NCBI RefSeq assembly: GCF_055900595.2 | Contig: NZ_CM148325.1 | Reading direction: 5' to 3' (one strand) | Length of the DNA stretch: 64,000 nt | Part shown: piece after piece, positions 58,501 to 64,000 of the stretch | Layout of the letters: each line of letters opens with the position of its first letter | How positions within the stretch are numbered: the stretch's first letter is position 1 | Made by a program: the position numbers

Positions 58501-61500
58501 CACCATCTGAAACATTTATAATCCGGCGGGTTTCCGGTGCACCATCAACTGAAAATCCATATCCTGAAGGACCGGCCCCTACAGAAAGTACATTGCTTTC
58601 TCCATTCACCTGAGAGCCATACCCCAGAGCGACACTGTTGTCTGCATTAAAAACAGCTGTCTTATGTCCCACTGCCATGGATTTACCCGCATCCCAAATT
58701 ATTGCACCGGAACCAACAGCAAAGTTTTTTCCAGTAACATTAGTATCACCGTTAGCATTTCCATTTCTGTCAATCACACTTGCACTTTCAAGTGACTGAG
58801 TGCCATTATCAAGCCAGATAGTACCCGTCAATGGCTCAGAAAGTGTTTTATGAGCCAAAGCCTGAGATGAGAGCAGCAGGGCCACACTCACTGCCAGCGC
58901 GCTTTTCTTTAAAAAAGCATCACGTCTTTTAAGCATTCTGTTATTCTCCTGTATTATTACTTCACCAGCCAGAACGGTAGTGCGGAGCAAAAATACAGTG
59001 ATAAGAATCCTCTCTTATTAACTTAATAATGCCAGGAATATTATTGTGTATAATATGCGACCTCAATTTAAGCAGCAGAAAACGACTGGCATTAAAATCA
59101 TTAAATTATAAACATATACAACTTTGTAAAGGTGGTTATAATAAACCTGATTACTTTAACGTCTGTATACCTGCACTGCTGATATCACAAAACAATAAAA
59201 ATCCTGGTTAATATCTCTGATGATTGAATGAGAAATTCACGATGTCTGGTGAGAATTCTGTTCAAAACGAGGAATGCAGACGTACATGTGGCAGGCATGG
59301 ACTTCTACCAATTTAACTTTTTTCCTTCCTTGTATTTACACATTGCACATTTTGCGCTACAAAAATTTCACGTGGCACGCACCACGTGATCCGTAGAAAA
59401 GCCTCTTGTTACGAATTTCGTAAACCGCACGTCTGTCTGGTCGTGCGGATTTTTTATCCGTCAACTTCACATGAAACCCGCCAGAGCACTGTTTCCGGAT
59501 TCAGACATCAGGCATATTATCATCCACGATGTCGTGAACAAGATCACACTTTTGCAATTCCTTTATTGATCGAAAGCAGTTAATCACGGAAATTAATTAC
59601 CGGAGTGAAAGCATTACTGCATCGTAAATATCTACCATTTTTGACTACACCCTCTGACAGAATTTTCAGAGGGTTTTTTATCAGTTTCACCATCCAACCC
59701 TGTACGCCAGAATGGTTTCACTGTCACTCAGTTCTGCTATTGCCTTTTTCATCTCCCTTTACCTTACGTTCTGCCAGAGTCTGAGCCATTTGAACAGGAG
59801 GTTATCATTGATATCGTGTTCCCGGGCAATACGGGCAACAGAGGCTCCTGGTTGCAAAACCAGTTTAACCATTTGAAGTTTAACTCATTTGAAAATGATC
59901 TGCGGGGTTCTGCGGATAATGTTTTTGCTCCATAACAGGCGCCCACCAGTTTGAAAAGGTGGGCACCTACGTTACCAATACTGGCTTAATGGATACATAC
60001 GGCGGTCGGTTCTTACGGTAAAACGACACAACCAAACGCTTCTTATCCTGCAATGAACTGCTTTATTACCGAGTTTAGTGACCGCACAGACACTCACTTT
60101 TAAGAAAAACAGAATGGTAAACAAACTCCATGAATTACAATAGCTCTCTGGCTGCCGCCACAATAGCTTGCGCGGTTAACCCGTACTCTCTCTGTAAAAA
60201 GTCCTGAGTTTCAACCTGGCCATACCGCTCTTTAACCCCCACCCGACGCATGGGCACAGGACAAGTTTCTACAAGCACTTCAGCAACTGCTGAACCTAAT
60301 CCATTATGAATACGGTAATGACTCCAATTAGTTGAATTAGGAGTATAATAGCCACTTTTAAGGTTCTTTCATGGTCACAGTTAACCTTCATTGCTCCTGT
60401 TGCCAGTCCGTTCAGGTTTACCGTCACGGGAAGAACCCAAAGGACATGATCGATTTCGCTGCCGTGACTGTCATCGAGTGCTTCAGCTCACTTACCGTTA
60501 CGAGGCCCGTAAACCGGGAGTTAAAGAGCAAATCACTGAAATGGCTTTCAACGGTGCCGGAGTTCGCGATACTGCCCGTACGCTGAAAATCGGCATTAAT
60601 ACTGTCATCCGGACTTTAAAAAACTCTCGCCACGAAGAATAACGTCATACCCGGTCGCTCATGCTGATATGGCACTCATCTGCGAACTTGATGAGCAATG
60701 GAGTTTTGTCGGCAGTAAAGCGCGACAGCACTGGCTCTGGTACACGTACAACACGAAAACTGGTGGCGTTCTGGCCTACACTTTTGGCCTACGGACTGAT
60801 TAAACCTGTCGTGAATTGCTGGCGCTGCTTGCCCTTTTACCATCGGTATGTTGACCACTGACGAATGGGGTAGTTACACCAGAGAGTTACCGAAGGAGAA
60901 GCATCTGACTGGTAAGATTTTTACTCAGCGCATTGAGCGCAACATCTACCTCTGAGAACCCGAATCAAACGTCTGGCCCGCAGAACTATCTGTTTCTCGC
61001 GCTCTGTAGAACTTCATGAAAAAGTCATCGGTGCCTTTATCGAAAAATATATGTTCTACTAATTGGAGTCACCACCTTCGTTTGTTTAAAGAACCTGCTG
61101 GTCCTGCCATTAATATTACCTGCTGATTGCTTCACATCCGGATTCCTCGCACTGCGCGCGGGTTATTGTTTCGTTTTCGGCCACGGGGTCGCCAGGGCTC
61201 TGTTTGCAGGCCATGATGGCCTGACCTGTACTGTTTCTCAGGCACTGAGATGTCCGTTTACGCCATTTGTTCCCTGCCCCTCTGTCTGATAACGAATACG
61301 CTCACAACGCACAGTACTGAACAATACCGACAACAACATGTCTTACATGAAATTCGCTGTAACATCCACCGGAAAACATTTTCAGATATCGGATGAGGTA
61401 CTACTTCCATTGACAGCGCGAGGTAACAAAATTGATGGTAACTCTGACCATTAACCGTAAACCGCAGGGTATTTTCAGTAAATCACCGGCAACGCCGCTG

Positions 61501-64000
61501 CAGGATAAAACGGACACAGCATACAAAATGAAGGCCGGTGACCAGATACCACAGTTGAACGATAAACAGAAACCTGCTGATAAAACACCGTGGCGACATG
61601 ACAAAACGCCAGAGCAAAAACCGTAAGCGCATTATTCGTCTTGTGGAACTCTGGCCTGAGTCATTCAACCGGGAAAAAAACAAAACCACTTAAAGTGGGG
61701 ATACCTGACGACCTGATACAGGATATCGCCATCCGAGAACTGGCGTTTGGCGCTGGTACATTACATGCAGCAGTGGCGTCTTATGTGCAGTCTCCGCGCT
61801 ATTACCGTGCGTTAATAGCAGGTGGCGCCCGTTACAACCTGAACGGTCAGCCGTGCGGGGAAGTGACACCACAGGAACAGAAAGAGGCAGAGACCCGTTT
61901 AATGATGCTGAATGACCGACGAAAAGACAGAAAACCTCGTTGACTGCACAACAGCGCTGTTCACTGAGCTGTAATCAATGTACAGCGCTGTACCGGGCGA
62001 TGGGTAATACCGGTCACAACCGGTAACCCCAGAGACAATGCAACTGTTTTTAACGCAATATACTGGCCGGATGTATCACCCCGGGCAGCCTGAAAACACC
62101 TTTCCACCCGGCATTGTCCGTCAGCACTTATCACCCGCCATGTCTGTTGCAATAAATCCACCCGTTGCGAACATTCTTCATCAACCGTGGCACTGACCCG
62201 TGGATGGCAAATGCTCGTCTGGCTGAGCAGCAACAGGCATCGCATTGTTGCTCCTCCATGTTGTTCCCGCAACCAGCGTAATACCACCGGTGGTGCTGGA
62301 CTGGCCGTGTGATTACGTTCAGTAATACGCTCGTGCACCTGTCGGTAAAAGGAAGTACAGAATGCATGAATCTGTTGTCCGTTGATGTTTCCTTCTGCCG
62401 AATGGAGTGTGAAGTGGACGGCCAGCAGACGCGGCCAGTGATCCACCGCCTGCTGAATAAAACGCCGGATTTCCACCGGCTCTGAAAGTACGGTTTCGGT
62501 TATTTGCACGATTTGATCCCCTTGAATGTTGCTGAACCGGTGTCGGTACGCAGGAAAGCACGCCGAGACCGGTACGATGCCTGTTACAGCGAAGAACGAG
62601 GAATGACAGACGGGGGCAGCAGGTCGCCAGCACCAGGGACAGGGCTGATTTCCACAATACCAACGCTGGTATTTTGCACATTGCCAGCGTACCGGCATTA
62701 CAACACGTTTCATGCTGCTGCCCCTCGTGATGCCTCGATTCGTTGCTGCATCCACTGCTCCACTTCACTTTTGTACCAGCGGCTGCTGCGCCCCAGTTTG
62801 ATGGGTTTAGGGAAATGGCCTTCACTGATCAGCTTGTAAAACCATTTGTCGGTCATACCAGTGAAGCTGGTGATGTAGTTCATGTCGATCAGGGGATCGT
62901 CGGCACGCAGCAATACGCTGTCGTGACCTGTCATTGAGGTCAACATGGTCAGAATGTCCTCTGTGAGATTTATGAATGTTGGGCAAATGCGGGTGAATCT
63001 GCTGAGCTGAGCTTTCAGAGCTGGCCTGCTACGGGATACCAGGGATTACCGGCGAGGTAACGGGCTTCCGGATCGCGCACACCACGACGATCGCGGGCGA
63101 AATCACTGAACGCCCATATCAGCTCTTTGAGTCTCTCTTCGCAGTCCGGTGAACAACTGTCCAGCACCACATCCCGGGTTATCTGTTTCTGGTACGGTGC
63201 TGCTTCACCCGGTGCCGCGAAGCCCAGTACGTTGCTCCAGGCATCCAGTATCAACCGGTCCAGCTCAGGGCCGTCGAAATATTCCTGTCTGACGCACAGC
63301 ACCACGTGGTATTCCGGTTTTTAAGGATGACGGGTCAGGAGCCAGCAGAGGTCGCGTCCGGGGGTTGCATTCATCAGCGCACTGACGGTTTCGATAAAGG
63401 CCATACCGAACCAGGTTTTTCTGTCGCTGAAGATGTTGCCATGTTCCCCCGGCAGACGAAGCAGGATCCGCCGTATCCTGGAGCCGGACTGCTCGCGCAA
63501 CACACGGTTGAGAACGCCGATGATTTTGTTCTGATAAGATGGCCAGAAGGGCGCCATGCTATAGTCGAAATAAGGGATAGCATTCATAAGATATGTTCCG
63601 TTATACGCAGCCCACAACGCGTCCTGCCCGTGGATGCGCTGACGTGTTATGGCTTGCGTATGGGGTTGATGGAATAAGTGAAAAACCGCGGCAGAACGGG
63701 AAGATCAGGTAACCGACAAGGGACAGAACACCGGATGCAGGTTCAGAATGAATGATCTCCGTTGACTTCGGTTCACATCATTAAGCAGGACAGTAAGGTT
63801 TTACCGACGGAGTGTTTCCAGGAGCGAAAGCAGAGAAAAATACCGTTGCATGACTTCAGGACGACTTTTTCAGAAAACGAGCTAAGGGCGTCAGCCAACG
63901 TCCTGTAGCATAAGCTCAGGCACCGGATGTCGTTTTACAGGGCTCACCTGCCATCCAGCAGACGCCCCGGCCCACGACTGCAACCATAATTACGTTGCCC

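Follow-up and report, generated by a model that had tools for sequence, protein, structure and literature searches.

An alpA cassette as a probable backbone component of an Escherichia coli pheU genomic island

Results and Discussion

Position of the alpA cassette in the pheU island

The alpA gene and its neighbours, near the end of the 64,000-nucleotide stretch of DNA analysed here (the window), probably form a regular and widespread component of one E. coli pheU island, in its usual orientation. This single genomic island of ~57 kb has a conserved backbone at its far end, and positions 61077-64000 very likely represent the left part of it. As a finding, such an alpA cassette is ordinary. The relevant features are listed below in window coordinates.

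17078..17153, plus strand: tRNA-Phe (pheU), the integration site of the island and the only tRNA in the window (ARAGORN)
17131..17267, plus strand: attL, the last 23 nt of pheU and ~114 bp, imperfectly repeated at the right end
17351..18613, plus strand: P4-type tyrosine recombinase, 420 aa, the sole integrase of the island (tblastn)
60371..61062, plus strand: degenerate IS1 transposase pseudogene (RefSeq on the identical sequence: "frameshifted; internal stop")
61435..61943, plus strand: ProQ/FinO-domain pseudogene, convergent on orf182 (Pfam, alignment, annotation)
61961..62509, minus strand: orf182, divergent YagK/YfjJ (inovirus Gp2-type) paralog, 182 codons, GTG start at 62509
62624..62713, minus strand: what remains of a small Cys-rich ORF; its start codon overlaps the stop codon of alpA (ATGA)
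62710..62946, minus strand: alpA, intact, AlpA-family winged-helix DNA-binding protein of 78 aa (Pfam PF05930)
63015..63587, minus strand: orf190, divergent YagK/YfjJ paralog, 190 codons, broken (translations, hhalign)
63944..64000, minus strand: 3' end of a 243-aa YagK/YfjJ "inovirus Gp2" gene, which starts beyond the window (tblastn)

There is a single island of ~57 kb at pheU, limited by one pair of imperfect direct repeats. dsbD-dicD and cadC, which lie around pheU here, are also the flanks of the K-12 pheU locus. The empty pheU site of K-12 aligns to positions 14704-17267 of the window and to positions 32896-37468 of GPEC389 L001, with an overlap of 137 bp. The right end and the sequence past position 64000 were read from GPEC389, which is not the strain of the window; over the final 5.6 kb it differs from the window at 2 bases, and one IS insertion is missing from it. 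In GPEC389, ~10 kb of the same backbone follows position 64000 and leads to the island's own attR, then to yjdQ and cadC. The attR repeats the tRNA end imperfectly over ~137 bp and closes the island ~9.8 kb past the window. By this comparison, the strain of the window would be expected to continue with the remainder of the Gp2 gene, two hypothetical genes, the GTPase-to-DUF4942 block, an attR that lacks 1 nt of the pheU 3' end, and then yjdQ and cadC.

Both ends of the element place it among the tRNA-inserted islands with a P4-type integrase. In line with the earlier note on this DNA, which spoke of a P4-like module, the integrase is of the P4 type; it adjoins the tRNA, and direct repeats of the tRNA 3' end are present at both ends (the right one in GPEC389). 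It is 100% identical to the integrase of GPEC389 and 35% identical to K-12 IntA (tblastn). At the far end, the plus-strand backbone block up to attR, as annotated in GPEC389, includes the genes for a GTPase (YeeP/YfjP), DUF932, antirestriction, RadC/JAB, DUF987, CbeA/CbtA, DUF957, and DUF4942 proteins. This block is divergent from the alpA cassette. Between the integrase and the alpA cassette, there are 42 kb of cargo and insertion sequences.

The IS1 relic marks the junction of cargo and backbone, and this reading is supported by sequence comparison. Homology of the backbone to other islands begins exactly at 61077 in locus L008. The degenerate IS1-family element that the earlier note saw beside the alpA segment was confirmed at 60371..61062, where it abuts the segment. 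The block at 58853-61274, which contains the relic and its flanks, is 99.5% identical to the pheV island of another strain.

Gene content of the cassette

On the minus strand, the order of the module is Gp2/YagK-YfjJ, orf190, alpA, the small Cys-rich ORF, and orf182, and the ProQ/FinO gene is convergent to them. All the ORFs originally named in this segment are indeed on the minus strand, and the integrase is on the plus strand.

The assignment of alpA to the AlpA family is borne out. The protein scores 40.8 bits on Pfam PF05930 (Phage_AlpA; E 2e-10), where the cutoff is 21 bits, and it matches the PHROG annotated as "excisionase and transcriptional regulator" (E 6e-10). The nearest solved structures are 8c3t, an AlpA-family protein, and TorI. 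PADLOC returned only a weak AlpA-type match and assigned no defence system, and NCBIfam profiles gave no match above threshold. In positions 61000-64000, the promoter scan found no sigma-70-like site and the terminator scan found terminator-like sites only at chance level. The copies of the module are under purifying selection. The dN/dS ratio is 0.04-0.38 across all four module genes (0.04-0.26 for alpA and 0.12-0.27 for orf190), which indicates that the module genes are real genes.

The 243-aa protein is a clear member of the YagK/YfjJ family (Pfam YagK_YfjJ_C, E 3.6e-37; REP_ORF2-G2P, E 1.9e-10). The family invariants are H101, H103, Y213, K216, and K220, and the protein keeps both the HxH and the Y..K...K motifs intact. 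Positions 63944..64000 encode residues 226-243 of the GPEC389 protein (tblastn). This fourth minus-strand gene was not mentioned in the earlier note.

orf182 and orf190 are, judged from their profiles, degenerate paralogs of this family: the homology is detectable and the invariant residues are lost. With Pfam alone, both are below the threshold, and a cross-genus homolog of orf182 reaches 23 bits on the Pfam family profile, whose cutoff is 25.8. With hhalign against the Gp2 family, the probability is 98% for orf182 and 96.6% (E 4.8e-10) for orf190. orf182 has MRC where HxH stood and ends before the Tyr motif. orf190 has EYH for HYH and Asp at the motif Tyr. Structure prediction was of low confidence (pLDDT 51 and 63), and the AlphaFold model of orf190, with pLDDT 51, is too poor for a fold search.

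Two ORFs of the segment had to be redefined. The "264-aa ORF" at 61961..62755 exists as an open frame, but as a gene it is a run-on of the conserved 182-codon orf182. The 82 codons upstream of orf182 are open only in this lineage, and three other copies have in-frame stops there. The "two adjacent frameshifted ORFs" at 63015..63617 are indeed broken, but they are neither two genes nor frameshifted. The ORFs 63015..63305 and 63321..63617 are in one frame and are pieces of orf190, split by a nonsense point change. The in-frame TAA is at 63321-63323; the same codon is GAA in the near-identical GPEC389, where the gene is annotated as intact.

Coupled to alpA is a conserved Cys-rich mini-ORF that is essentially without annotation. 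The family is 37-50 aa in length, and its motif is invariant in 11 copies from at least 7 genera. A protein database search with a 44-aa query gave no matches, and a profile search recovered only 23 cluster representatives among 1.84 billion proteins. One metagenome protein is a fusion of AlpA and the mini-protein. In the present copy, Tyr stands in place of the invariant Cys (CAKY), and spacer deletions specific to this lineage fuse the mini-ORF (start 62713) in frame to orf182.

The ProQ/FinO pseudogene at 61435..61943 was also absent from the earlier note. Its 3' ORF matches Pfam ProQ with an E value of 4.9e-17. Two lesions break the gene, a deletion of 2 bp near 61600 and one additional A near 61675, and RefSeq annotates it as "frameshifted"; an intact copy of 169 aa is present in SW070919, in which the cassette as a whole is intact. 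An Rfam scan of 59000-64000 with E up to 1 gave one chance-level match only, and thus no known RNA partner was found for this gene. A palindrome, ACAGCGCTGT, occurs twice at the ProQ/orf182 junction. It was dropped as a candidate element because its first copy is unconserved in other copies of the module.

This copy of the module is partly disabled, by the nonsense codon in orf190, the Cys-to-Tyr change and fusion of the mini-ORF, and the two frameshifts in the ProQ/FinO gene. These inactivating mutations are few and recent.

Recurrence and orientation of the cassette

The 1.74-kb module is present, in part or in full, in 2,829 of 5,426 complete E. coli genomes (about half), and at least 80% of it is present in 1,213 genomes. 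The module occupies 5,183 places in E. coli in all; a carrying genome has it at a median of 2 places, with a maximum of 8. Gene order and strands match those of the present island in 55989, FDAARGOS_1303, SW070919, OkiPb01706 (pheV), and GTEN_23 (pheV). The sharing of the module with other islands bears out the earlier assignment of the alpA segment to an island backbone, and comparison with P4-like island backbones, which had been proposed as a check, finds the same layout elsewhere.

The orientation is equally constant. The alpA module is opposite to the integrase in all seven islands whose integrase is visible, four from E. coli and three from other genera. It is divergent from the block from the GTPase and DUF932 genes to DUF4942 in 26 of 26 loci. 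Of 39 loci in other Enterobacterales, 22 show the block, always divergent from alpA (22/22), and 3 show the integrase, always on the opposite strand (3/3). Locus L040 is a complete island of only 9.5 kb, bounded by a 65-bp direct repeat at tRNA-Leu, and has the same layout; there, alpA and the integrase gene are 2.2 kb apart and read from opposite strands. By these comparisons, the orientation opposite to the integrase is the normal state of the alpA cassette. The expectation that alpA sits near its cognate integrase holds for compact relatives such as L040 but not for large islands, in which cargo lies between the two.

Possible roles of AlpA

The functions proposed below for AlpA, the Gp2-like proteins, and the small ORF are deduced solely from protein family and synteny. 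On this view, AlpA is a small winged-helix protein that binds DNA and would control both its own cassette and the backbone, much as AlpA proteins do as master regulators in phage-inducible islands. Together with any P4-type integrase that happens to be there, it may also promote excision; a dedicated partnership with a single integrase is unlikely. After excision, the intact Gp2-type protein might nick the island DNA for replication or mobilisation. Taken as a whole, this mechanism (AlpA as a regulator and possible aid to excision, with nicking by Gp2) is tentative and stands somewhat short of an even chance.

AlpA-family proteins fall into two groups, transcription regulators and excisionases (PMC11773190). 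Alternatively, AlpA could be a dedicated excisionase that serves the integrase at 17.3 kb as its cognate recombination directionality factor and is encoded far away from it. We consider this unlikely. AlpA does not co-vary with one integrase type. Between this pheU island and a pheV island, AlpA is 98.7% identical although the integrases are only 43.9% identical, and the reverse is seen in two pheV islands, where the integrases are 98% identical and AlpA is 84% identical. This makes a module regulator more likely than a dedicated excisionase. Exchange of DNA between islands by recombination, instead of functional independence, could also explain the lack of co-variation. The island has no other AlpA-family gene, so this AlpA could still be the excision factor. 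The match to excisionase PHROGs, the relation to TorI, and the short distance to the integrase in the compact L040 point in the same direction.

Characterized islands give examples on both sides. In Vibrio pathogenicity island 2, the AlpA-like VefA and VefB are encoded in the middle and at the 3' end of the island, far from a P4-type integrase at a tRNA, and function as excision factors (PMC3014918). A location far from the integrase is shared with the pheU island, but VefA, which is experimentally required for excision, belongs to another organism and has other neighbour genes. On the other side, alpA_1 of EcCIMP1, a phage-inducible chromosomal island of E. coli MP1, is distal from the integrase and on the opposite strand, and it is dispensable for the excision of its own element, so that the family name spans different functions (PMC11773190). 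EcCIMP1 differs from the pheU island in that it is a small phage satellite with packaging functions, whose alpA_1 resembles the Xis of the helper phage; no helper link is evident in the pheU island.

The SRL island of Shigella flexneri is the other case against a dedicated excisionase, as it has both a proven integrase-proximal excision factor, rox, and a distal Vis/AlpA-like gene, orf41, beside the Gp2-like orf39 and upstream of the GTPase gene (PMC6980539; PMC2704930). Its distal backbone, orf38-orf46, includes the Gp2/YfjJ-like orf39, the Hha-like orf40, the Vis/AlpA-like orf41, and the GTPase orf46. It resembles the pheU island in that an AlpA/Vis-like gene stands beside YfjJ/Gp2-like genes, a few genes upstream of a YeeP/YfjP GTPase, and YfjQ, antirestriction, and toxin-antitoxin genes follow the GTPase at the distal end of an island inserted at a tRNA gene (PMC6980539). 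The two islands are likened by gene description only. The pheU island has no rox, and in SRL the Hha-like gene lies between the Gp2-like gene and alpA.

In CP4-57, a cryptic prophage of E. coli K-12, the gene order is intA, yfjH, alpA, yfjI, yfjJ ... yfjP, yfjQ ... yfjZ/ypjF. As in the pheU island, the integrase is of the P4 type and lies at a tRNA-like gene, a YagK/YfjJ gene follows the AlpA gene, and a block of GTPase, DUF932, antirestriction, RadC, and toxin-antitoxin genes reaches the far end. YfjJ of K-12 shares 31% identity with the 243-aa Gp2 protein, and YfjP shares 35% with the backbone GTPase. However, alpA of K-12 adjoins and is co-oriented with intA, its product is only 25% identical to the present AlpA, and it precedes yfjI (DUF3987). 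No gene like the alpha primase or YfjI (DUF3987) was found by tblastn with K-12 YfjI in the window or its 43-kb continuation. Phage P4 and P4-like satellites (int, vis/alpA, alpha primase, sid, delta, psu) share a P4-type integrase and an AlpA/Vis-family gene with the pheU island. They differ in size, an 11-kb satellite against a ~57-kb element of cargo, and sid, delta, and psu are absent among the annotated products of the latter.

Alternative origins of the alpA segment

The earlier note suggested that the alpA segment is a second, decaying P4-like module; on this view it would be the remnant of a tandem island that lost its integrase. Some decay is real, as several genes of the segment are broken, and tandem islands do exist: in SW070919, a second integrase directly follows the DUF4942/ParDE end of the first island. 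An integrase fragment is also found beyond the right end of the present island. Still, a second element is highly improbable here and is already largely ruled out. The window contains one integrase, no other being found by tblastn in its 64 kb, and one alpA. A search with the 23-mer of the pheU 3' end, allowing up to 3 mismatches, found its sole copy at 17131-17153, and thus there is no att repeat in 17154-64000. The second integrase or tRNA-derived repeat looked for past position 64000 did not appear; GPEC389 has only yjdQ and the island's own attR. yjdQ, an integrase scrap, lies beyond attR, and K-12 has it at the empty pheU site too. It is part of the conserved pheU locus, and the idea of a tandem island was rejected on this ground. 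The one-island layout in all seven islands with a visible integrase, including the repeat-bounded 9.5-kb island, also argues against a second element. An inverted piece of the same island, the other option of the earlier note, perhaps flipped by an IS, is hardly credible: the IS1 relic at the left edge of the segment and the co-orientation of alpA with intA in CP4-57 would suit it, but the relic and its flanks were inherited as a block common to a pheV island, the K-12 AlpA is a distant homolog in a different, integrase-proximal slot, and the present type of AlpA has the same order and orientation in the E. coli islands and those of other genera alike.

Significance

The alpA segment is best regarded as the standard backbone of one pheU island, neither a second element nor a rearrangement. 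The wider value of the finding is limited and lies in the mini-ORF coupled to alpA and in the YagK/YfjJ-ProQ/FinO cassette that surrounds them; to our knowledge, this cassette has never been studied. In tRNA-inserted islands across Enterobacterales, the cassette might act as a conserved unit for control and for the initiation of replication, with the mini-protein as a partner of AlpA, but this is doubtful. Such a unit would consist of an intact HUH-like YagK/YfjJ protein, its two degenerate paralogs, AlpA, a Cys-rich protein of 37-50 aa whose translation is coupled to that of alpA, and a gene for a ProQ/FinO RNA-binding protein in convergent orientation. For the reading of such islands in general, an AlpA-family gene far from and opposite to the integrase is normal, and the label "AlpA/excisionase" alone does not name the excision factor of an island.

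Orientation and Recurrence of the Cassette

The order and strands of the alpA cassette were identical in every E. coli locus examined (55989, FDAARGOS_1303, SW070919, and the pheV islands of OkiPb01706 and GTEN_23). A plus-strand ProQ/FinO gene is followed on the minus strand by orf182, alpA, orf190, and Gp2. Where visible, the tRNA-proximal integrase (+) lies before the cassette, and the block of genes from GTPase to DUF4942 (+) lies further on. The 1.74-kb module is present, whole or in part, in 2,829 of the 5,426 complete E. coli genomes, at a median of two and a maximum of eight places per genome. 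At least 80% of it is found in 1,213 genomes. The relevant genes of the window are as follows.

17078..17153, plus strand: tRNA-Phe, the sole tRNA of the window
17351..18613, plus strand: integrase, the sole integrase of the window
61435..61943, plus strand: ProQ/FinO-domain gene (Pfam E 4.9e-17)
62624-62713, minus strand: Cys-rich mini-ORF, unannotated, directly following alpA
62710..62946, minus strand: alpA (Pfam Phage_AlpA E 2e-10, 40.8 bits against a cutoff of 21)
63015..63587, minus strand: orf190, 190 codons, with an in-frame TAA at 63321-63323
63944..64000, minus strand: 3' end of Gp2, the fourth minus-strand gene (243-aa YagK/YfjJ "inovirus Gp2")

A scan with one genome per species yielded 39 loci from Tatumella, Kosakonia, Citrobacter, Hafnia, Yersinia, Serratia, Pectobacterium, Erwinia, and others. 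The block is upstream of alpA and divergent from it in all 22 loci with any block gene in view, and the integrase is on the strand opposite to alpA, 2.2 to 9.4 kb off, in all three loci with an integrase in view. The compact island L040, from an Enterobacteriaceae metagenome genome, is complete at 9.5 kb (4348-13862), inserted at tRNA-Leu(gag) with a 65-bp repeat at its ends. It contains an integrase and, on the opposite strand, alpA, a 66-aa ORF, Gp2, and a zinc-ribbon protein, and then a WYL regulator, DUF3944, DUF4942, and ParDE. In this minimal layout, alpA is close to the integrase and on the other strand, so this arrangement is already that of the basic element; large islands have gained cargo between the integrase and alpA. 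Extra "putative zinc ribbon" genes (Zn_ribbon_11/DUF7828) are inserted in some copies of the cassette (L049 21469-22259 and L050 457-1333), which suggests a modular cassette to which small zinc-binding proteins are often added.

An earlier note had called this segment island backbone, which is correct, and had interpreted it as an inverted piece of the island or as a second, decaying P4-like module. The constant order and strands, with the opposite integrase in all three cross-genus loci, give no support to an inversion. The observation itself is partly confirmed: alpA, the strands, and the single plus-strand integrase near 17.3 kb stand, and the coordinates of the ORFs were borne out by the six-frame ORF list and the raw sequence, while a pair of "frameshifted" ORFs and a 264-aa ORF do not stand.

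Limits of the Island

The window is E. coli DNA, whose last 3.1 kb are 100% or 99.9% identical to many chromosomes. The sequence past 64000 was taken from strain GPEC389 (L001). It and the window differ at 2 bases over the last 5.6 kb, and GPEC389 has one IS insertion fewer. There, the rest of Gp2 and two hypothetical genes precede plus-strand genes for GTPase, DUF932, antirestriction, JAB/RadC, DUF987, CbeA/CbtA, DUF957, and DUF4942. A 160-nt integrase fragment and then cadC, cadB, and cadA follow. The unoccupied K-12 pheU site aligns with 14704-17267 of the window and with the right end in GPEC389, the two matches overlapping by 137 bp; therefore, the island is bounded by an imperfect direct repeat, consisting of the last 23 nt of pheU and ~114 bp. 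Its right copy is ~9.8 kb past the window in GPEC389. The integrase fragment is the pseudogene yjdQ, located between the right repeat and cadC (L001 33115-33274; 4192-4354 in the K-12 pheU locus, L004). K-12 also has yjdQ between pheU and cadC, at an unoccupied pheU site.

A second element, for which the earlier note had proposed a search past 64000, was rejected: the repeat found there is the island's own right end, and the integrase scrap, outside the repeat, was left in the core locus by an older element. The window has one integrase, one alpA, and no further copy of the tRNA 3' end with up to three mismatches allowed, so a second module is unsupported.

The IS1 relic, rightly taken to separate this segment from the rest, marks the boundary between cargo and backbone; homology to the SW070919 backbone begins at 61077. 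The segment 58853-61274, in which the IS1 relic lies with fragments of a transketolase and a transposase, shares 99.5% identity with 16862-19284 of the OkiPb01706 pheV island (L048). The junction is therefore common to islands at different tRNA sites; it is old and inherited, not a recent breakpoint. An IS3-family element of ~1.3 kb (57063-58372) lies inside a YadA-like adhesin gene relative to GPEC389, and 99-bp tandem repeats at 56833-57030 are part of the same gene.

Genes Adjacent to alpA

The two ORFs at 63015..63617, described as frameshifted, are in the same frame and represent orf190 split by the in-frame TAA. The corresponding codon in GPEC389 is GAA, and the gene is annotated intact there. 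The stop is probably either unique to this strain or an error of sequencing, since every top database match has about one base of difference from the window. The 264-aa ORF reads through from the mini-ORF into orf182, the two being fused by spacer deletions; RefSeq has a 182-codon gene with a GTG start at 62509 in four genomes, and three other copies have in-frame stops within the stretch upstream of orf182.

Gp2, overlooked earlier, is a clear member of the YagK/YfjJ family (Pfam E 3.6e-37), with further matches to the phage Rep domain REP_ORF2-G2P and to PHROG replication initiators. HxH and Y..K...K residues, the pattern of HUH-type nicking enzymes, are invariant across 16 aligned family members drawn from many genera. 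Pfam searches with orf182 and orf190 each alone gave no passing match. Profile comparison showed homology to YagK/YfjJ for both orf182 (probability 98%, E 1.6e-13) and orf190 (96.6%, E 4.8e-10), which synteny supports, as recognisable Gp2-type genes occupy their positions in other genera. In orf190, the motif residues are EYH and Asp replaces Tyr; in orf182, they are MRC and the protein ends before the Tyr motif. Due to the loss of these residues, both are likely to be non-catalytic paralogs.

In E. coli copies, a Cys-rich ORF of 37 codons starts at an ATG that overlaps the stop codon of alpA (ATGA), and homologous ORFs of 37-50 codons follow alpA in 11 cross-genus loci. The mini-ORF was noted in the window and in loci L007, L008 (SW070919), L009, and L013-L027. 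Twelve residues are invariant across the homologues in the 11 loci (P, W, C, C, R, Y, C, G, C, P, C, R; motif P..W.C..C.R.YCG...CP.C.R). RefSeq lacks an annotation of the ORF in the copies examined, and only 23 were recovered when 1.84 billion representative proteins were searched with a profile, so the family is very rare in protein databases. One of the 23, from a single metagenome contig, is a fusion of AlpA with the mini-protein; this hints at a functional link, but misassembly could also explain it. The window copy has Tyr at the position of the second invariant Cys.

The ProQ/FinO gene, also overlooked, is convergent on orf182 with a gap of 17 bp. Compared with an intact 169-aa copy, it has a 2-bp deletion and a 1-bp insertion, causing two frameshifts. 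It is broken differently in 55989 and intact in SW070919 and GTEN_23. The Rfam scan revealed no RNA partner for it.

Between diverged copies, dN/dS was 0.04-0.26 for alpA, 0.12-0.27 for orf190, 0.30-0.38 for orf182, and 0.30 for Gp2. All four genes are under purifying selection, and therefore the cassette family itself is not decaying. The decay claimed earlier holds for the window copy, with its orf190 stop, fused mini-ORF, and frameshifted ProQ/FinO gene.

Possible Role of AlpA

The AlpA family includes both transcription regulators and excision factors, and AlpA is the master transcription regulator of phage-inducible islands. The window AlpA also matches PHROG families "excisionase and transcriptional regulator", and among solved structures it is closest to an AlpA-family protein (8c3t) and to the excision factor TorI. 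AlpA of this pheU island is 98.7% identical to that of the OkiPb01706 pheV island, where the integrases are 43.9% identical; between the OkiPb01706 and GTEN_23 pheV islands, the values are 84% for AlpA and 98% for the integrase. AlpA does not track the integrase in these comparisons, and for this reason a cassette-level regulator, which may also assist excision non-specifically, is tentatively favored. A dedicated cognate excisionase is unlikely and is ranked below it.

K-12 AlpA activates intA transcription, while Rox and Hef stimulate excision without such activation (PMC2704930). AlpA-like excision factors of VPI-2 are encoded far from the integrase (PMC3014918). EcCIMP1 can excise without its second AlpA gene, which is distal and in the opposite orientation (PMC11773190). 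In the SRL island, the proven excision factor rox adjoins its integrase; a separate Vis/AlpA-like gene, orf41, neighbours a Gp2-like gene and lies upstream of the GTPase, so that this distal cassette is of the type seen in the window (PMC6980539).

The segment is thus one copy of an island backbone that is very common and already annotated. The mini-ORF, the degenerate paralogs of the HUH-like protein, and the ProQ/FinO gene, which has been inactivated repeatedly, may merit separate attention.
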